IMG/VR virus record: IMGVR_UViG_3300045988_145381
Strand: one strand, 5' to 3'
Length of the DNA: 48,428 bases
From: a virus
Lineage: Duplodnaviria; Heunggongvirae; Uroviricota; Caudoviricetes
Shown here one piece after another: positions 5,149-45,155 of the stretch. Numbering within the stretch: position 1 is the first letter of the stretch; each line of letters begins with the position of its first letter. The notes under the pieces are model-generated. The model searched no databases, was not told the DNA's origin, and saw only the letters and a program-made list of their open reading frames with translations. Both the position numbers and the translations under genes were made by a program.

Positions 5149-6265
5149 CCTCTAACCCCGCATACTGGCAATTTATATTTCTCTCTCTGGCGACCTGCGT
5201 CTCTCCAACTACAGTAAATACAGGACTTGATATTTCTAATCTTTTAGCCCCGGCATTTTTTAAACGTTGAATAATTTCATCTGGATTTATATCTCTTCCC
5301 ATAACCGAACGTTGCCATTGTTTATACTCATCAAGAGCTTTCTCAACCTCACTTTGAATTAACGTTGTTCTGTTTTTGTCCGATGAGTTAATCCAGTATT
5401 TAATTATTATATCGTATTCAATGCTCTCTGGTTTCTTAACAAGAACTTTATCTGTGAATGGTCGAATATTAGTTGCAGAGAGAACGCTATTTATCTGCTC
5501 TAATAGTTCATCAGAAGGTATATCCCCGTTCTCTAACAAAGAACGGATTTCTACAGTTCCGGGCGATGGTGTATATACATTCACATCTTTTATATTCTGA
5601 TTGGCTGTTCTTGTCCAATATTTATAAGAATCCTCCGGCCCTGCTGTAGACAGTTTTTCCGGCGACAGTTTTATTCTTTCAGCATAATTATCATCTGACT
5701 CTGTATCAGCACCAGAATTAGATGTTGTTAGATTCCTTACGCTGGAAACATACGGCAACGGAGTCACCAACTCGTTTATTTGCCCAGGTAAAAATCCATT
5801 CCCCGATAAGCCAGGTATAACAGCATATCCTGAGACTGTACCAACTGTTTTCCCAGCTGGTATTTCCAACAAAACATCTGTTTGGAAAATAACACTATTT
5901 CCAGTTGAAATTTGAGTGCCAGCAGGTATTGTATATATCCCCGATAATTTTGTTGACAGATTAAACTCAAATGTAGTCAAGGCAGATTGAGCTTCCAGCC
6001 TAGGCGTATCCGTCAGATAGCCTATATGGTCGAGATATTCACCCCCACCATATGTAAGAAGGTTTTGTTTTGCAGAAAAATCGATAGCTTTTCTTTGCTG
6101 TATAATAATCTCACACAATGACAAGATGAATAATCTACGTGGATCAGCAGGTGCTAATGTTTCACCTGTTATACTCTCAAAAGCCCTGATTGAACGAGTT
6201 GTTATATCAGTCGGGTTAGAATCTGCGAAAGTAATATCTGGCAAACCACCGCGCGGCAACGTCAT
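5141..6265 (-). CDS. baseplate protein J-like
   Basis: 374-aa ORF, translationally coupled to its neighbours, in the J position of a P2/Mu-type baseplate cluster. Confidence 0.6.
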   Translation of the reverse strand: MTLPRGGLPDITFADSNPTDITTRSIRAFESITGETLAPADPRRLFILSLCEIIIQQRKAIDFSAKQNLLTYGGGEYLDHIGYLTDTPRLEAQSALTTFEFNLSTKLSGIYTIPAGTQISTGNSVIFQTDVLLEIPAGKTVGTVSGYAVIPGLSGNGFLPGQINELVTPLPYVSSVRNLTTSNSGADTESDDNYAERIKLSPEKLSTAGPEDSYKYWTRTANQNIKDVNVYTPSPGTVEIRSLLENGDIPSDELLEQINSVLSATNIRPFTDKVLVKKPESIEYDIIIKYWINSSDKNRTTLIQSEVEKALDEYKQWQRSVMGRDINPDEIIQRLKNAGAKRLEISSPVFTVVGETQVARERNINCQYAGLEDG

Positions 6266-6582
6266 TCTCTAACTCCTATCACAAGTTTTGGCCTAATAAA
6301 ACCATCAGAAACGTCCGTTCTTTCAAAAGTAACAGAATGGATAATCGCTCTAGGCTCAAACTCACTAATTTTTTGAATTATTTCTCGTGTTGCTGTAGCA
6401 ATAAAAATTGGGCTAGGGCTATCAACAAGACTTGAATTAACTCCTAATTTTCTGGCATATGGTACAGTGCCAATCTGAGTATTAATAATAGTAGAGACAT
6501 TTTGCAAAACTTCTTCTACAACTGTTTTGGGCGACCAATCAATCGAGTAAGAAGGTGATGATATGGTAAACGTATTATTCAT
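6262..6582 (-). CDS. baseplate protein (P2 gpW / T4 gp25-like)
   Basis: 106-aa ORF; size and position upstream of J. Confidence 0.5.
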   Translation of the reverse strand: MNNTFTISSPSYSIDWSPKTVVEEVLQNVSTIINTQIGTVPYARKLGVNSSLVDSPSPIFIATATREIIQKISEFEPRAIIHSVTFERTDVSDGFIRPKLVIGVRE

Positions 6583-7046
6583 AATAATTTACCTAACGCA
6601 CTTCTAGTTTTTGACTCTATATTGCCAGCAATATCAACTAATGCTTCTTTCAGAGAGGTCTGTCCGACTTCCTGTAATTTAATGCCGACGATAATCACTC
6701 GTGGATTCCCAGTTGGACCGAAATAAGTCCATGATTCCTCTATATCTGTAATTATAAAATTACCAAAATACTGAATACCAATTACAACAGGATTTACTTC
6801 CTGAATTGATTGCATTGTCCTAAGTAATGAAAGCGCAGCCAATGGAACAATGCCAAGTGTTGTATCCAACCGCATATTAAAACTAACTTCATCCAGATCT
6901 GGACCTATATCCTCCAGAACAGGTTTAAGCCCAATAACATCATGGCGCGCTACACGACGCTTTGACGTCCTTTTAAAATTGTTGAACGTATTCACCACTA
7001 TTGATGAGGCAACAAAAGGCATTGTACCAAGCATACCCACAATCAT
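6579..7046 (-). CDS. putative baseplate-associated protein
   Basis: 155-aa ORF coupled between the V-like and W-like genes; no recognisable motif. Confidence 0.3.
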   Translation of the reverse strand: MIVGMLGTMPFVASSIVVNTFNNFKRTSKRRVARHDVIGLKPVLEDIGPDLDEVSFNMRLDTTLGIVPLAALSLLRTMQSIQEVNPVVIGIQYFGNFIITDIEESWTYFGPTGNPRVIIVGIKLQEVGQTSLKEALVDIAGNIESKTRSALGKLL

Positions 7047-28041: not shown

Positions 28042-28307
28042 TCATCATCTCCTGCCGCACATACAACCTCACAAAAAACATCAGCGGAATGTTTCTCCTT
28101 GAACGAATGACGCTCAAAACCGCACTCAATATCAGGCGCAAAAACATCCACCACATACGGTCTTTCAGAATGTTGGTTTTCCCAACGATAAACCGTAGTG
28201 ACGTTGAAATGTTTTAACGCTTCACGGAACTCAACGCTGCCCGTCAGGTTTTTTGAGGTCAGGTATTGCAGGAGGTTTTTTACTACTTCACGGTCTTGTA
28301 CTTTCAT
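28038..28307 (-). CDS. hypothetical protein
   Basis: 89-aa ORF directly downstream of copy 1 of the conserved promoter-leader element. Confidence 0.45.
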   Translation of the reverse strand: MKVQDREVVKNLLQYLTSKNLTGSVEFREALKHFNVTTVYRWENQHSERPYVVDVFAPDIECGFERHSFKEKHSADVFCEVVCAAGDDE

Positions 28308-28314
28308 CGGGTTA

Positions 28315-28425
28315 TCTCCGGTTTAACCAGGGCGGGTATCGCTCGGTTTCGGGTATAACCTTAGGAAATTTTTTCCCACCTGTAAAGCACTTTTTATATA
28401 AATCTATAATTATATAATTCTATGA
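28315..28425 (-). promoter_or_regulatory. conserved promoter-leader element, copy 1
   Basis: Near-identical to 34827..34940 and 44347..44457; gene-direction read gives TTTACA-17bp-TAAGGT, a -10-like TATACC, a conserved leader and ggaga Shine-Dalgarno; AT-rich palindrome upstream. Confidence 0.6.
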
Positions 28426-33761: not shown

Positions 33762-34829
33762 TCAGGCTTTCAATAGCGATTCTTTCAGATATCGGGCATC
33801 AGCCAGGGCGTTTGGAGTAATCTTGCGAACCCATGCATTACGGGTTGGACTCCACTTAAAGGCGCGTGATTTAAGCAGCGAACGAATGTTTGCCTCTGGT
33901 TTGCCAGGGAAATAAAACAGGATGCGGTTATCCTCTGGATCTATCTCCATAGAAAAGCCGTCGTATTCTTCGCGCTGTGCTCCTGTTACAGACTTGACCG
34001 ATTCAAGCTCCTTAATACGGCTCTGTAGTCGTTTGATTTCGGCGTTATTGTTGCTCAGTGCGTATGAAGGGAATCCGATGCGCCCACAGAAATCTCCGGC
34101 CAGTAACTCTTTGGCTTCGCTTTCTGTAAACCTGAGATCGATTAATGCAGAAAGCTGCTGTAATTGGTCTTTTTTGTATTTGCGAATGGCCTTATTTGCG
34201 GCCTTCATTTTGACGTGTGACTTCATGCAGCCTTGCAGTTTACGAAGCAACTTAAATAGCGCATCAGGATCATCAGACGAAATTCCATTACGACCAACAC
34301 CTGCGGCTTTGCTCTCGTAGTGTGATGCTTTACTTTCGCATTCAACAAACGCTTTTCTGAATAACGCATCAGCTTTAGACAAACGGCGGCGATGGCCTTT
34401 CGCGCTATAATGGTCAACTAAAATCGGCTGGCCTAACGGGATCACATCCAACAGGTCATGCGCTCGCTTATGCGCTACCGCTCCTTCTTTTCTGGCTTTT
34501 TCTGCACGAGCAATATATCGGGCAAGACGCGCGTTCTGGCGTTCCTGATAGGTGTTTACGTAATCATCTCCGCGCTGCTGCTGTTCAAGCCATGCTTTGC
34601 GCAGATCTTCTGTTACGTCCACCAGCTCCGCAGGGATACAACCAGTTTGGGCTTCATAAGAGTAACCATCCTCATAGATGCGCCCATCGTCTTCAACAAA
34701 GAAAAAGGTTTCGTGCTCATCGCTTTTGACCATACGACCATTAACATGGCGTAATAGGTAGCCAGTATCAGTGCTTAACAGGCTGTTAGGGTTGTTGATC
34801 CAGTCAGAAATAATTACTTGTTTATTCAT
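33762..34829 (-). CDS. DUF3560-like protein
   Basis: 355-aa ORF; C-terminal ...FKWSPTRNAWVRK... resembles the DUF3560 signature recalled from memory; downstream of promoter-leader copy 2. Confidence 0.5.
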   Translation of the reverse strand: MNKQVIISDWINNPNSLLSTDTGYLLRHVNGRMVKSDEHETFFFVEDDGRIYEDGYSYEAQTGCIPAELVDVTEDLRKAWLEQQQRGDDYVNTYQERQNARLARYIARAEKARKEGAVAHKRAHDLLDVIPLGQPILVDHYSAKGHRRRLSKADALFRKAFVECESKASHYESKAAGVGRNGISSDDPDALFKLLRKLQGCMKSHVKMKAANKAIRKYKKDQLQQLSALIDLRFTESEAKELLAGDFCGRIGFPSYALSNNNAEIKRLQSRIKELESVKSVTGAQREEYDGFSMEIDPEDNRILFYFPGKPEANIRSLLKSRAFKWSPTRNAWVRKITPNALADARYLKESLLKA

Positions 34830-34940
34830 CAGATTTCTCCGGTTTAACCAGGGCGGGTATCGCTCGGTTTCGGGTATAACCTTAGGAAATTTTTTCCCAC
34901 CTGTAAAGCACTTTTTATATAAATTATATAATTATATATT
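34827..34940 (-). promoter_or_regulatory. conserved promoter-leader element, copy 2
   Basis: Near-identical to copies 1 and 3; lies between the Q-like gene and the DUF3560-like gene. Confidence 0.6.
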
Positions 34941-35000
34941 ATTAGATTTTCGATGTTCCCGATGTCTACACACCTATCAAAAAGCTCAAAATTGACACTT

Positions 35001-39967: not shown

Positions 39968-39990
39968 AACCATAAAAAAGGCCCCCGAAG
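39968..39990 (-). terminator. rho-independent terminator (minus-strand orientation)
   Basis: ggcccccgaaggggcc hairpin with a T-run on the minus strand. Confidence 0.5.
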
Positions 39991-40001
39991 GGGCCTAATC
40001 G

Positions 40002-40124
40002 CTACTTGCTGCTAATGTTTATCGTCACATTTAGAGCGTTATCAGTAATCTTCCAACCCTCCCCATGTGGCGTAAACAAAGCTCCAGTAACAACGATAAA
40101 AATACACATACAGTATTTTTTCAT
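40002..40124 (-). CDS. small hydrophobic peptide (40 aa, MKKYCMCIFIVVTGALFTPHGEGW...)
   Basis: Read directly from sequence; Shine-Dalgarno-like aaggg upstream; terminator 39968..39990 immediately downstream. Confidence 0.25.
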   Translation of the reverse strand: MKKYCMCIFIVVTGALFTPHGEGWKITDNALNVTINISSK

Positions 40125-40520
40125 TGTATGGCCCTTACAGGCCGTTTCACGGCATCCCCACCGACGAAAACAACGCGAGAGCAAGCACGGCTGCTTGTGC
40201 TTGCATGTACGGCAACGGAGAATCCTCCCCTAAAGTCGGTGCCCGGGTGCGAATCGGCGGGAAGGTCCACAGGTATTTTACGATTATTTTAAGATTAGTA
40301 ATAGGAAAGAAATTAAACGAAAAAACTCGTTTATTTTCACAAAATCAGTAACCTACCCACAATCTGTGAGTTTGCAGGCACAACAAGAACCACAATTTTT
40401 TGAAGCATAATAGTGGACTATTATTACCTTTTGGGTAAAATTAACTTGCTGCTTGTGCTTGCGTGGTTGTTTATACAACAACGTAATGCTGAAAGGACCG
40501 CGAATCCGATCAGCACGAAA

Positions 40521-40549
40521 GAACCGTCCTCAATAGGGCGGTTTTTTTG
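40521..40549 (+). terminator. intrinsic terminator-like hairpin in the ant leader region
   Basis: Stem-loop followed by 7 T. Confidence 0.45.
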
Positions 40550-40690
40550 TTTCTGCCTACCAATAAACCCACGCTATGTGGTTGTCTCTGTTAAAATCCC
40601 GCCGTATTGACATGAATGCGCCATTGGTGGACACTTTCCGAGCCGTAGCAAAATCTACGGTCGGGATTGGCGTCCCGATTGCACAATGGC

Positions 40691-40716
40691 GCATACCGCG
40701 TTAGCGGTTTTTTTAT
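40691..40716 (+). terminator. intrinsic terminator-like hairpin in the ant leader region
   Basis: accgc-gtta-gcggt stem-loop followed by 7 T. Confidence 0.45.
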
Positions 40717-40876
40717 GCGTAAAGCACTGCTACACCCAAATTATGGTGGGGCGTGCGGGGGCGGAGAAATCCGCGCCGGGTTTGTCATTGTGCCGGTTAC
40801 GCCAACCCTGTACGTCTCACCACCATATTGATTGGCGTCATTGGTGGTGATAGTTCCTTTAATCGGAGATATCACA

Positions 40877-41068
40877 ATGACAAACCTACCCCATGACTAT
40901 TACGTCAACCTCGTAAAGATCCTTCTCAAGAAAGCCTCATACGCCGATAAATTCCGCCTGGCTGAAATCATCGAGCGCGAAGCTATGCGCATCGCCAGCA
41001 ACGATAACGCTGTTTCTGACGCAAAAATCTCCCTCGTAACCAAAGTAGTTATGGGAGGTGCAAAATGA
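40877..41068 (+). CDS. small protein overlapping the ant start (Icd-like position)
   Basis: 63-aa ORF (MTNLPHDYYVNL...) within ORF 40832..41068; ATGA overlap with the ant-like gene. Confidence 0.35.
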   Translation: MTNLPHDYYVNLVKILLKKASYADKFRLAEIIEREAMRIASNDNAVSDAKISLVTKVVMGGAK

Positions 41069-42246
41069 AAACGCTTCCGACCGTTAACACCCTACAGCCT
41101 ATCCTGCATAACCAGCTCCCCGTTATCACTACTGAACTACTGGCGCAATTGTATGGAACCGAGCGCCAACGTCTGACAAACAATTTCAATAGAAACAAGG
41201 AACGTTTTATAGAAGGTAAACACTTTTTTAGGATAGAAGGTAAAGAGTTACGAGAGTTGAAGAACAAAAACTCTTTAAGAGTTCCTGTGAGAGTAGTTAA
41301 CGAACCATCTTTAAGAGGGTTACAAATTCCCCCGAAAGTTCGCTCCCTCATCCTCTGGACAGAACGCGGGGCTGCACGTCACGCTAAAATGCTTGAAACT
41401 AACCAAGCGTGGGATGTGTTCGAACGGCTGGAAGACTGCTATTTCAACCAGAACGCGCAAACGGCCGCGACCGTAACCGTCTCACCAAACAATGCTCGTG
41501 AGGTTGTCGATACGCTCAACGCCAAACCGATGTTTTACATTAAAGTGTGCAACAACGAGCCACTCACAACCTCAGCCGATGTTGCCCAGGCATTCAGCAC
41601 CACAAACAATTCCATCGTTATGGCCATCGATGCGTTACGCATTCCTCGCACAGCTGCGGCGCGTCATTTCTTTAAAGAGCAACGACCGTTGGAAGGAAGC
41701 GACCGCGAAATAACAATCTATCGCATGACAAAAGACGGATTTACCTTGCTCATGGAAAGTATCGACGGTCCAGGCGTGAAGGATATCAAGCTGGCCTACA
41801 TTGAAGCCTTTAACGCTATCAGCAGCGTGTTAAAAACACAGTACGAGCGCGATCTGGCTAAACGACTGTACCAGGAAAAAACGATTATCCGCGCGGCAAC
41901 AGAGCATAATCGGCTATTAACGGAACCGAACTACAGGAAGGAACTAATCAAGGAGTTTGACAAGGCAACAGGGAAAACCAAAGCGGCGCTAAGTCTGCCA
42001 GCAATGACTCAGGAAAATGTGATATCAGCCTTACTTCTTGATCTGCTCAGAAACGCCAGAGCACTTATCAGCTTTGACGAAAACCTGAATCCTCAGCTCA
42101 AGCTACTACCACCGACAGGCAAAGTAGTCGACCAGGCTGATCACAACAGCATACTCAGCGTACTGGATGCAAACCTGCCAGCCAGGACACTACAGGATCT
42201 GATAAAAACATGTGCTGATAAGCTGGCACAGAAAAGCAGACCATAA
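41065..42246 (+). CDS. ant: antirepressor (ORF6N/KilA-N-like plus Rha/Ant-like domains)
   Basis: 393-aa ORF; N-terminal ...ITTELLAQLYGTERQRLTNNFNRNKERFIEGKHFFRIEGKELREL... and central Rha/Ant-like region; hairpin terminator at 42252..42271. Confidence 0.65.
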   Translation: MKTLPTVNTLQPILHNQLPVITTELLAQLYGTERQRLTNNFNRNKERFIEGKHFFRIEGKELRELKNKNSLRVPVRVVNEPSLRGLQIPPKVRSLILWTERGAARHAKMLETNQAWDVFERLEDCYFNQNAQTAATVTVSPNNAREVVDTLNAKPMFYIKVCNNEPLTTSADVAQAFSTTNNSIVMAIDALRIPRTAAARHFFKEQRPLEGSDREITIYRMTKDGFTLLMESIDGPGVKDIKLAYIEAFNAISSVLKTQYERDLAKRLYQEKTIIRAATEHNRLLTEPNYRKELIKEFDKATGKTKAALSLPAMTQENVISALLLDLLRNARALISFDENLNPQLKLLPPTGKVVDQADHNSILSVLDANLPARTLQDLIKTCADKLAQKSRP

Positions 42247-42983
42247 CTACAAGGGGCTACGGCCCCTTACTCTTTTCTCTCTTATCAACACCAGAGACTT
42301 TCTGAAAATCCTTTCGAATAGCGTCAGCGTCACGCGCCAAGCCCATACTCGAACGTGTCGCCATATGACGAAAATGATCAACTGCCGGAAACAAAGAAAT
42401 AATGGACCCAATAGCTTGCAGCAAACTCGCTTTTCTACGCATCATAATTCCACCATAACCGATAACCACCCTTCAGACACACCCCCCCCTCCCCCCATAC
42501 AGGGTGCCCTTTACCGGAGTTCCGGCCCCTTCTCAAAAGCATCAAAAAAAGCTCGAGATCGAGTACCGGAACTCATGCCACCAGATAGCTCCACATCGTT
42601 TCCAATGCTTCGCCGCCGTGTGCGCCCTGTGGCCCACAATCATGCCATTGGTCGTCTGATATACCTTCTTCTGCTCATAGAGCACAGGCGAGTTGTCGCA
42701 CTCCTGCCTTTCTCAGACTCGACTTAGTTTAGATCGCTGTTCCTGGCTTGCGTCAGCACACTTTCCCCTTGTACGCATACCCGCGCGCCACTTCGCCCAA
42801 AAACACCGAACCCAACGAAGTGGCAAAGACAACGACGCGAGCGTGAGTCTGAAATGGGCACCAGTAAAAAAGGGGTTGCAGGCGCAAAAAGATTTGATTA
42901 TCTTTAGACGCAAGAAAGCCGCCCCAATCAAGAGGTGTCTTTTTAAATCCAGCCTACCAAGCAAGATTTAAATTTCAGACTGA

Positions 42984-43007
42984 AAACCGCCCGGCAAGGC
43001 GGTTTTT
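42984..43007 (+). terminator. rho-independent terminator
   Basis: aaccgcc-cggcaa-ggcggtt hairpin followed by tttt. Confidence 0.5.
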
Positions 43008-43055
43008 GTCTTTCTGGCGCTTACATTACACCACCATAAAACGATCCGTAAAGGA

Positions 43056-43328
43056 TCATTTGATCCCTTGTTCCAATTCTGCCGACACTTTAACCTTTTC
43101 CCATACAAGGGTTTGCAGCCTTAACAGAATCGCATCTTTATCAAGGTGTGAAAGATCCTTAACCATATCGTCAAACGACAGAACGCGAATGGCCATCTCA
43201 ATGACCCTCGGCGGCTCCCCCTTCTCATATCGCTTATATGTAGCCAACGATATCCCAAACTCTTCGGCTGCTCGCTCCTGCGTCCAGTTCATCCCACGAC
43301 GCCATAATTTCAATTCGTAACCCGTCAT
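43056..43328 (-). CDS. XRE-family HTH transcriptional regulator
   Basis: 90-aa ORF with HTH (...WTQERAAEEFGISLATYKRYEKG...). Confidence 0.6.
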   Translation of the reverse strand: MTGYELKLWRRGMNWTQERAAEEFGISLATYKRYEKGEPPRVIEMAIRVLSFDDMVKDLSHLDKDAILLRLQTLVWEKVKVSAELEQGIK

Positions 43329-43429
43329 TACATCCTCTACCTTTCCCTAGATATTCAATAAATTAGACATAGCCACTCACGACAAAATAAGATGTATTAA
43401 CAATCCAATCTTTAGGCTTTAGGTAAAAA

Positions 43430-43855
43430 ATGAGTTCATCTGCTTTTGTCACCGTGGTCACTGGTGTAAGTGTTTTTGTTCTAGGCCAACTCATCGTCAA
43501 AGGAGCTATTGAGCCTTACATTTCATTCAGGGAACAACTAGGGAAAATATCCAATCTGTTATTATGTAACCAAGCAAAAATAGTGAATCCTGGCTCGAAC
43601 TTAAAGCCAGAAATCATTCATGATCTAAAAGATTCCGCAGCACAGTTAATGGCGAAATATTCCACTTTACCTTTCTATATCAAAAAGTTACATATCGGCT
43701 TTCGTCTTGTTCCATCAGCCACCGAGATTCTTGGGGCAGCTCAAAATTTGAACTATATAGCGTCAATACATGAAGGTAAGACTGGGGAGAATCCATCTAA
43801 GCATCTCGAAGAGATTGGCCATATGCTCAAAATACCAACTACCTATTCAAGCTAA
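43430..43855 (+). CDS. membrane-anchored hypothetical protein
   Basis: 141-aa ORF with N-terminal TM helix (SAFVTVVTGVSVFVLGQLIV); locally AT-rich coding sequence; divergent from the HTH regulator. Confidence 0.45.
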   Translation: MSSSAFVTVVTGVSVFVLGQLIVKGAIEPYISFREQLGKISNLLLCNQAKIVNPGSNLKPEIIHDLKDSAAQLMAKYSTLPFYIKKLHIGFRLVPSATEILGAAQNLNYIASIHEGKTGENPSKHLEEIGHMLKIPTTYSS

Positions 43856-43923
43856 CCCAATGTAAGTTATCGGCTTGCCCCACAATAAGTTATCTATCTT
43901 CAAACGCCCCCTATATTAACACT

Positions 43924-43950
43924 CGCAAAGTGTCAAAATGACACTTTGCG
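43924..43950. terminator. perfect 12-bp-stem palindrome between convergent genes
   Basis: cgcaaagtgtca-aaa-tgacactttgcg. Confidence 0.45.
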
Positions 43951-43958
43951 CATTGTGT

Positions 43959-44339
43959 TTACTTAACGAGGAATAAAAATGGTTTATTGTTCGGCGGTGT
44001 AATCGGGGCTGGCTCGCTTTTGCTCATGCGATCAGTGTACCAGGCCAACTCCTTGTCAAAGTAAGCCTGATTAAAATAGGCCATGAATGTAGTTTCAAAT
44101 CCATAACGACCGCTAATACGCAGCATCTGATTGCCGTTCTCTGTTTCCAGATATACCTGGGCACGTTCCTGATTCTCCTTCAGCCAGGTTAAAGCCTCAT
44201 CGCATGAGGACACACGATACTCATCATCGTAGCAGTCATCGATGCGGCTTGAGGAAGAACGGCAAATCACGCCAACAGAACCAGCCAGGATAGTTTGAAT
44301 TTTAAGGAAAGCGTTTTTGCGGATTTTAATCATGCTCAT
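43959..44339 (-). CDS. hypothetical protein
   Basis: 126-aa ORF directly downstream of promoter-leader copy 3. Confidence 0.45.
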   Translation of the reverse strand: MSMIKIRKNAFLKIQTILAGSVGVICRSSSSRIDDCYDDEYRVSSCDEALTWLKENQERAQVYLETENGNQMLRISGRYGFETTFMAYFNQAYFDKELAWYTDRMSKSEPAPITPPNNKPFLFLVK

Positions 44340-44346
44340 CGGGTTA

Positions 44347-44457
44347 TCTCCGGTTTAACCAGGGCGGGTATCGCTCGGTTTCGGGTATAACCTTAGGAAT
44401 TTTTTTCCCACCTGTAAAGCACTTTTTATATAAATATATAATTATATAATTCTATGA
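44347..44457 (-). promoter_or_regulatory. conserved promoter-leader element, copy 3
   Basis: Near-identical to copies 1 and 2, including the upstream ttatataattctatga motif. Confidence 0.6.
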
Positions 44458-44502
44458 GCACAAAAAAGCCCCTTTGCAACAGGGGCTTATCATTCGTTCT
44501 GA

Positions 44503-44802
44503 TCAGATGTTAAACGCTATTCGTTTTCCTGTGGGAAGCTCAACATCCAGGCTTAATTTGCCTCCCATAGCTTCAACGTAACGCTTTAATGTCGCCAGCT
44601 TTAAATCATTTCCGCGCTGCTCCAGCTTTGTTACTGCTGGCTGGCTTATACCCATCGCCTCAGCAACCTGTTTTTGTGATAACTGGAGTTCTTCACGCAT
44701 CATCTGCAAGCCGACCTCAAGAATCATCTCATCTGCCATTTCTTTAATTCGCGCCTGGCTTTCCGGTGAACGGCTGGCAATCGCCTCATCTAATGTTCTC
44801 AT
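44503..44802 (-). CDS. higA: HigA-like HTH antitoxin
   Basis: 99-aa ORF with XRE-type HTH (...LSQKQVAEAMGISQPAVTKLEQ...), overlapping the stop of the upstream toxin-like gene. Confidence 0.65.
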   Translation of the reverse strand: MRTLDEAIASRSPESQARIKEMADEMILEVGLQMMREELQLSQKQVAEAMGISQPAVTKLEQRGNDLKLATLKRYVEAMGGKLSLDVELPTGKRIAFNI

Positions 44803-45155
44803 TACTTGCTCTCCAGTGTGTTCAGATGTGCTGCAAACTCATCCTCAGCTATACGCACCAGTTTTTCATAAAACCGCTTATCGTTACTTTTGTCTCCTGC
44901 ACAAAGAACGATGGCCCGGCGAATCGGATCGAACGCATAAAAGGCTCTTATCGGACGGCCAGAAAACTGAACGCGAAGCTCTTTCATATTTTTGTACCGA
45001 GAACCTTTTACGGTATCGGCATATGGCCTGGGTAACTCAGGTCCGTAAACCTGTAGCTTTTTCAAATCAGCCAAAACCTTTTCCTGAAGAGCGTCTTCTT
45101 GCTCATTTAGCCAGTCGTCAAATCGCTGGCTAAAAAGTACCGTCCACATGCTCAA
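44802..45155 (-). CDS. higB: HigB/RelE-family toxin-like protein
   Basis: 117-aa ORF upstream of and coupled to the HTH antitoxin (toxin-first order); two TATAAC-N6-GTTATA-type palindromes at 45159..45204. Confidence 0.6.
   Translation of the reverse strand: MSMWTVLFSQRFDDWLNEQEDALQEKVLADLKKLQVYGPELPRPYADTVKGSRYKNMKELRVQFSGRPIRAFYAFDPIRRAIVLCAGDKSNDKRFYEKLVRIAEDEFAAHLNTLESK

Follow-up and report, generated by a model that had tools for sequence, protein, structure and literature searches.

Do a regulator gene and a small membrane-protein gene lying back to back in a viral genome form one acquired unit, and could that unit protect its carrier against other phages? The locus that raises this question spans positions 43,056 to 43,950 of IMG/VR record IMGVR_UViG_3300045988_145381, a 48,428-nt stretch of Caudoviricetes DNA (hereafter, the window). 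A first-pass annotation had described here a 90-aa XRE-type helix-turn-helix regulator (HTH90) divergently paired with a 141-aa protein carrying one N-terminal transmembrane (TM) helix, in markedly AT-rich coding sequence closed by a perfect palindrome with 12-bp stems. It had read the pair as a horizontally acquired superinfection-exclusion or abortive-infection (Abi) module. The observation was largely correct and the interpretation half right. We conclude with high confidence that the locus is composite and that the 141-aa open reading frame (ORF) is solitary cargo, set into a backbone unit to which HTH90 and the palindrome belong. The best overall explanation, which we favour tentatively, is that this lone membrane-anchored moron protects its carrier at the inner membrane.

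An optional cassette in a phage-plasmid backbone

The window is a phage-plasmid of ~48 kb, with a P2-type tail, an IncFII-type RepA, ParA, a P1-like C4-RNA/antirepressor immunity module and HigBA. It is recognised as such because of its plasmid relatives, its RepA and ParA genes, its phage structural genes and its P1-like immI arrangement. Escherichia coli plasmid p48 (NZ_CP023368.1) is 100% identical to the region, and identities of 98-99% were found in ~60 circular, non-mobilizable ~48 kb plasmids of Escherichia, Salmonella and Klebsiella, as well as in the Yersinia myophages vB_YpM_39, vB_YpM_41 and vB_YpM_44. An annotated relative encodes an IncFII-type RepA and ParA, a CI-like XRE repressor, holins and an endolysin, together with terminase, portal and capsid genes and a P2-type contractile tail.

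Within this backbone, the 141-aa ORF is optional. The whole query was covered in 12 of 62 related plasmids and in 13 of 72 E. coli genomes with the backbone, and the remainder cover ~62% of it. About 50 of the 62 plasmids keep HTH90, the palindrome and a 126-aa gene, and the 141-aa ORF is gone; in relatives of this kind, HTH90 adjoins the 126-aa gene. Whenever the ORF is present on the window backbone, it occupies the identical slot. In a three-way alignment with pHN68-3 and vB_YpM_41, homology stops at the HTH start codon (CCCGTCAT) and restarts at ATATTAACACTCG. Because both borders are exact, the optional segment can be delimited to the cassette listed in Table 1. The interval between the HTH start codon and the palindrome is ~37 bp in pHN68-3, and the more diverged phage-plasmid pAR-0407-1 (69% identity) has the order HTH gene, palindrome, 126-aa gene, without the 141-aa ORF. 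The cassette is oriented antisense to the backbone unit, between its hairpin and the start codon of HTH90. Like other morons, it is present or absent among collinear relatives, lies between backbone genes and has precise insertion-deletion borders. Seen in this way, the locus is of an ordinary kind, with a moron at a hotspot of a phage-plasmid. The claim that the gene is horizontally acquired cargo is upheld by these counts and by the moron slots that its relatives occupy elsewhere.

The description of the DNA as markedly AT-rich and atypical fared less well in a comparison of GC contents. The ORF (0.394) does lie below its direct neighbours (0.45-0.47), also at third codon positions (0.36 vs 0.46-0.53). 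However, the mean of the window is 0.445 (standard deviation 0.047, windows of the same size), the insert has 0.381, and 12-17% of the windows of that size along the element equal or exceed these sequences in AT content. The deviation is mild.

The same comparisons bear on whether HTH90 and the 141-aa protein were co-acquired as one regulator-effector exclusion or Abi module bounded by the palindrome. The two genes are divergent, as first described and at the exact coordinates given then, with a common spacer of 101 bp, and their arrangement is identical in every carrier of the ORF allele on the window backbone. A short piece of HTH90 may even have been imported with the cassette, since three synonymous single-nucleotide polymorphisms are clustered within 70 bp of the HTH90 start, at the junction, a stretch in which the background rate would give ~0.4. 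Yet HTH90 and the palindrome persist without the ORF in the ~50 relatives mentioned above and in the diverged Salmonella relative pAR-0407-1. Conversely, no HTH partner was found for the ORF homologues in prophages, in phage D6 or on ~390 plasmids, and HTH90 is never their neighbour. HTH90-like proteins with 35-53% identity are encoded on 3,782 plasmids, including ygeA of IncI1, and none of them accompanies a homologue of the 141-aa protein. Nor is there any copy of the palindrome half-site in the spacer (43329-43429), and the only strong palindrome of the locus falls outside it. A co-acquired module is, on these sequence comparisons, largely refuted as an evolutionary unit, and we consider it very improbable. 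The clustered polymorphisms suggest instead that homologous recombination with a slightly diverged sister backbone brought the cassette into the lineage, which would explain why the cassette border coincides with the HTH start codon. In nucleotide comparisons, the promoter region and 3' tail of the cassette had no match in any other context.

The 141-aa protein family and its genomic contexts

The single N-terminal TM helix noted at the outset was confirmed: the Kyte-Doolittle mean over 19 residues peaks at 2.23 for residues 5-23, and the same scale detected no second hydrophobic segment in the protein. Ahead of the helix, the MSSS tail is without charge; on its C-terminal side come K24, R34 and K39, a pattern kept across the family. 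We infer a bitopic inner-membrane protein in the N-out/C-in orientation. An AlphaFold model (predicted local distance difference test, pLDDT, 79; predicted template modelling score, pTM, 0.71) has a long N-terminal helix at residues 4-46, followed by a compact helical bundle.

A first search for relatives returned 37 clusters, all from Enterobacterales and all labelled 'hypothetical'. An exhaustive profile search retrieved 705 clusters at 50% identity with E≤1e-3, including 125 with E≤1e-10; nearly all members have 135-155 aa and match end to end. They come from Escherichia, Shigella, Salmonella, Serratia, Leclercia, Citrobacter, Pantoea and Atlantibacter, and further from Pseudoalteromonas, Chromohalobacter and metagenome-assembled genomes (MAGs) of Acidobacteriota. 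Pairwise ratios of nonsynonymous to synonymous substitution (dN/dS) range from 0.12 to 0.49, with dS of 0.5-2.0, which indicates purifying selection on the gene. An ORF that had arisen by chance in non-coding, AT-rich DNA might have lacked annotation in every library and been AT-richer than its neighbours, as this one does and is. That reading is already refuted by the 705 clusters of full-length homologues, the low dN/dS at saturated dS and the confident structure model, and the probability left to it on such comparisons is negligible.

Conservation among members with ~30% identity peaks in the TM helix and the juxtamembrane segment. Residues T8, G12, V13, F16, Q20 and P29 are conserved at 84-98%, and L45, P95, N108, L133 and Y139 are also conserved. 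As the TM sequence is conserved with polar and small residues, the helix is probably a specific intramembrane contact surface, not a passive anchor. The sole PHROG match of the protein is family 7512, whose function is unassigned in PHROGs. Older curated records (pVM01 and D6) give the family member no gene name, and literature searches by accession, phage name or topic found nothing on the family.

The contexts of family members were compared across elements. Phage D6 and D6-like phage-plasmids have one between humD and phd/doc, and two unrelated lambdoid prophages carry one on the opposite strand, flanked by the replication genes on one side and the nin/Q region on the other. Two Chromohalobacter species have P2-like prophages in which a member adjoins the tail-sheath gene, with the fibre genes on its other side; this position is the Z/fun slot of P2. 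A Pseudoalteromonas P2-like element has its copy near the integrase. At one locus a member adjoins an integrase at an island border, and at one locus a ThsA_Macro gene. Plasmid-borne members adjoin Abi_2, Phd/ParE, resolvase, ParA/ParB or sitABCD genes. In PLSDB, nucleotide homology to ~390 further plasmids is confined to the ORF, and 300 of the 451 matches are conjugative.

An all-against-all comparison of the neighbours at 23 loci found no neighbour family recurring across backbones. Neighbours of ~247 aa at three distant loci were considered as a possible partner and rejected, being mutually non-homologous and without a Pfam or PADLOC match. On several conjugative and microcin-type plasmids, a small unannotated, convergent ORF (84 or 103 aa) lies directly downstream of the family member, on the minus strand at 6546-6800 of loci L005, L006 and L008 and at 5495-5806 of loci L052-L054; in clustering, it showed no recurrence across backbones.

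Candidate functions of the 141-aa protein

The 141-aa gene is a reasonable candidate for exclusion or defence, because it is optional, sits in moron slots and is sometimes found beside Abi_2, toxin-antitoxin (TA) or ThsA-like genes. A protective role appears the most likely one, since the family recurs in lysogenic-conversion slots and is common to phages and plasmids. We judge a host-protective or conflict function in the broad sense to be nearly, though not quite, an even prospect. Under the favoured reading, the resident element would express the moron protein at the inner membrane. A candidate promoter lies 37 nt upstream of the ORF, and an AGGT Shine-Dalgarno sequence 5 nt before its ATG. 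The N-out/C-in anchor would leave a small four-helix bundle facing the cytoplasm, and the conserved TM helix would contact a membrane component of the host or the phage. The most plausible mechanism would be that, in the manner of superinfection exclusion, this contact keeps the genomes of incoming phages, or other DNA, from entering. An entry block specifically is doubtful. The bolder proposal is that the protein founds a previously undescribed, widespread single-gene family (at least 705 clusters at 50% identity) of membrane-anchored exclusion or defence factors, traded by prophages, phage-plasmids and conjugative plasmids, in which the conserved T8-G12-Q20 helix would bind to an inner-membrane component of the host or the phage and thereby stop incoming DNA; we regard it as unlikely too.

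Known systems offer parallels of mode and position. Cumby and co-workers are said to have described, in 2012, gp15 of HK97 as a moron-encoded superinfection-exclusion protein of the inner membrane with a single TM helix. Like the 141-aa gene, gp15 is a small single-gene moron of a temperate phage with an N-terminal membrane anchor, designated a 'moron product' in the HK97 record, and the mode of action proposed here, in which DNA is stopped at the inner membrane, would be alike. However, gp15 has 62 aa against 141 and lies in sense in the tail operon, whereas the 141-aa gene is antisense in a regulatory/maintenance region; as a relative, gp15 was rejected (hhalign probability 1.6%). The P2 genes old, tin and Z/fun are likewise optional, prophage-expressed genes that exclude other phages from fixed slots, and the P2 record annotates old and tin as lysogenic-conversion exclusion genes. 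They have no sequence similarity to the 141-aa gene, and Old, Tin and Fun are soluble or larger. P22 SieA and T4 Imm resemble the favoured reading as inner-membrane proteins of a resident phage that stop the entry of an incoming genome, but they are polytopic, unlike a single TM helix with a four-helix bundle. For SieA, inner-membrane location and the block of incoming genome entry are described in PMC10883804.

Several observations weigh against a protective function. It is inferred from context only, and homology lends it no support. Pfam, NCBIfam and PADLOC gave zero matches for the 141-aa protein or 61 diverse members; the defence catalogue searched was PADLOC-DB v2, in which two single-member matches at E~0.005 were judged to be noise. 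A PDB sequence profile search gave no match to the family. The known exclusion families (SieB, Imm, HK97 gp15 and exclusion-annotated PHROGs) have no sequence or profile similarity to the protein, which matched no exclusion-annotated Pfam or PHROG family. Structure prediction, proposed by the first-pass annotation as a check, did deliver a confident model, but fold searches with it led to generic four-helix bundles only, and a BFVD structure search returned nothing significant. The topology follows from the charge distribution only. The promoter call is a weak consensus match, and such sites are no commoner than in shuffles. In five contexts the uncharacterised neighbours match no known defence genes, and the TA neighbours on plasmids may simply reflect maintenance regions. 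Finally, the most distant member found (32% identity), from an Acidobacteriota MAG (L039, 4760-5164), lies among chromosomal AI-2E transporter, PLD-like and VIT1 genes, with no obvious mobile-element markers nearby. Given this context, a tie to mobile elements or conflict is not obligatory for the family, which may have a cellular origin or role.

The chromosomal, non-mobile Acidobacteriota locus, where the gene lies among membrane genes, is the natural starting point for a role outside defence, such as modulating a host transporter, sensor kinase or protease, acting on envelope physiology or maintaining the element. Members often lie in plasmid maintenance regions beside ParA/ParB and resolvase genes, and the lack of similarity to defence families fits such a role. 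A conserved TM helix is also typical of small membrane-protein regulators, e.g. MgrB and SafA. What speaks for protection and not for a role of this kind is that the gene recurs at prophage moron hotspots, on the opposite strand, and is optional within a single backbone; lysogenic-conversion and exclusion genes are overrepresented at such hotspots, as the morons of lambda, P2 and HK97 show. We consider a non-defence role conceivable, though not probable. The conserved helix could also be read as that of an Abi or toxic membrane effector whose TM segments oligomerise and permeabilise or depolarise the inner membrane upon infection. Its high conservation, with the polar or small residues T8, G12 and Q20, and the Abi_2, TA and ThsA-like genes adjacent in several contexts fit this idea. 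It sits poorly with a solitary gene that has no recurrent sensor or antitoxin partner, with one TM helix joined to a folded soluble domain of 115 aa, unlike small pore-forming toxins, and with stable carriage by hundreds of plasmids under strong purifying selection. No PADLOC Abi model was matched either, and we rate this mechanism as improbable.

The backbone unit and the meaning of the locus

In the simplest reading of the sequence, the resident part of the locus is one minus-strand unit consisting of a promoter/leader, the 126-aa gene, the palindromic hairpin, HTH90 and a terminator (Table 1).

Table 1. Features of the locus and of related elements. Positions refer to the window unless a locus is named; a dot marks features without a strand.
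Feature	Position	Strand	Remarks
Bidirectional intrinsic terminator	42981..43008	.	Between the convergent immI/antirepressor operon (+) and HTH90 (-)
HTH90, XRE-type helix-turn-helix gene, PHROG 6962	43056..43328	-	90 aa; backbone, not cargo
Optional cargo cassette, ~577 bp	43329..43905	+	Replaces 17 bp of the ~37-bp HTH start-palindrome spacer of most relatives
Candidate sigma-70-like promoter of the 141-aa ORF, TAGACA-18-TAAGAT	43364..43393	+	Consensus scan, 9/12 match
141-aa ORF, PHROG 7512	43430..43855	+	Predicted bitopic membrane protein, N-terminal TM helix and four-helix-bundle domain
Perfect palindrome, 27 bp (12-bp arms, 3-nt spacer)	43924..43950	.	Backbone; after the 126-aa stop codon and before HTH90
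126-aa gene, PHROG 8090	43959..44339	-	Backbone; first gene of the unit running into HTH90
Promoter/leader cassette, ~117 nt	44337..44456	-	Ends at the ATG of the 126-aa gene
Promoter/leader cassette, copy 2	28305-28424	-	Ends at the ATG (28307) of an 89-aa ORF
Promoter/leader cassette, copy 3	34827-34946	-	Ends at the ATG (34829) of a 355-aa DUF3560 gene
Terminator after higA	44466-44488		Rated good/strong
MITE-like element, 318 bp	L003 (Yersinia phage vB_YpM_41) 3433-3750		Slot corresponds to window 43329

The palindrome, CGCAAAGTGTCA-aaa-TGACACTTTGCG, is perfect, as first described; the window contains it once, and none of 100 shuffles yielded a match. It does lie downstream of the 141-aa ORF, at 69 nt, but the claim that it closes the pair holds for position only: it is a backbone element, present in relatives without the ORF. 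In pAR-0407-1, a palindrome at the matching position (L058, 1790-1818) reads GTGGAAAGTATCAA/TTGACACTTTCCAC. Compared with that of the window, the inner bases are kept and two of the outer pairs differ (C·G to G·C and C·G to T·A), in each case through a change in either arm; the inner sequence common to the E. coli and Salmonella versions is AAAGTnTCA…TGACACTTT. Kept inner bases and two-sided outer changes identify the palindrome as a selected element of the backbone. Its RNA folds at -20.5/-21 kcal/mol (z = -5.7/-5.0) on the two strands, and the 12-bp stem has 6 GC pairs, with tails that are moderately U-rich only (CAUUGUGUUU on the plus strand, AGUGUUAAUAU on the minus strand). It may be either an intercistronic hairpin/terminator or an operator. 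A terminator scan flags it on the plus strand, where it is the only terminator-like structure 3' of the ORF, and the cassette has no terminator within. The palindrome, as upstream hairpin or operator of HTH90, would incidentally provide the 141-aa transcript with its 3' end as well, a probable case of co-option. Transcription continuing from the 126-aa gene beyond the hairpin would yield RNA complementary to the 141-aa mRNA. We considered and rejected a sigma-70 promoter (TTGACA...TAATAT) overlapping the palindrome, since the gap between its two hexamers (TTGAc/tA and TAATAT/TAAAAT) is 12 bp in the E. coli version as in the Salmonella one, which is too short. The palindrome was also rejected as a repeated element of the plasmid, being unique; the repeat is the leader cassette upstream of the 126-aa gene.

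HTH90 belongs to the XRE/HTH_3 transcription regulators by its profile matches: 29.8 bits with Pfam HTH_3 (gathering score 23; E=6e-7) and 27.6 bits with HTH_31 (cut-off 27), the domain covering residues 5-48. It shares the HTH_3 domain with YgeA of the IncI1 leading region and other plasmid and phage XRE regulators, and is distantly similar to RstR of CTXphi (31% identity, E=3e-4); these small YgeA/RstR-type regulators differ in having no link to the 141-aa family that we could find. Homologues of HTH90 abound on conjugative plasmids. On IncI1 (L060, 2537-2752), the homologue ygeA lies in the leading region near oriT, and on a pOXA-48-type plasmid (L061, 2501-3329) the 5' end of a restriction-endonuclease-like gene overlaps with the HTH90 homologue. 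The functions that HTH90 regulates are most likely those of the backbone. The three copies of the ~117-nt leader cassette are near-identical and AT-rich, with the pattern …TTTACA-17-TAAGGT…GGAGA…ATG, which suggests a co-regulated gene trio under one regulator.

The slot of the cassette holds a different insert in vB_YpM_41 and vB_YpM_44, of 318 bp and with no convincing ORF. Its 38-nt terminal inverted repeats (GGGG…CTAAG; GGGGTTCCGTGGGCATTTCTGCGATAATACACGCTAAG) and 5-bp target duplication (ATAGC) are as expected of a Tn3-family miniature inverted-repeat transposable element (MITE). In vB_YpM_41, it separates the Shine-Dalgarno sequence of the HTH90 gene from the ATG, and it probably disturbs HTH90 translation in its carrier phages. 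The 3' tail of the 141-aa cassette (43859-43897) contains a direct repeat, TAAGTTATC…(16 nt)…TAAGTTATC. Rfam matches at 39974-40827, to ryfA (-), isrK (+) and C4 antisense RNA (+), are directly followed by a small ORF and then a 393-aa ORF6N/Rha antirepressor gene (41065-42246); by these matches, the order over 39974-42246 is that of a P1/P7-type immI antisense-RNA immunity module. In p48, the antirepressor gene is annotated as split, with its ORF6N part marked as a pseudogene. Two genes from the cassette lies a type II TA pair (44503-45155, minus strand), in which a 117-aa HigB/Gp49-type toxin is paired with a 99-aa HTH antitoxin, with the strong terminator of Table 1 after higA.

Whatever the function of the 141-aa protein, this locus illustrates that the insertion of a lone gene into a backbone operon can mimic a module of a divergent regulator plus a small membrane protein. 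Adjacency alone is therefore insufficient, and a comparison of presence and absence is needed before a module is called. The locus has also brought to light a sizeable protein family without any annotation, which would be cheap to test. If the exclusion function were true, the family would represent a compact single-gene protective factor of phages and plasmids, in Enterobacterales and beyond, that is absent from defence catalogues, and the few inner-membrane entry blockers on record would gain a family amenable to testing. The family would then have a bearing on phage host-range prediction and on phage therapy against plasmid-carrying E. coli, Salmonella and Klebsiella.

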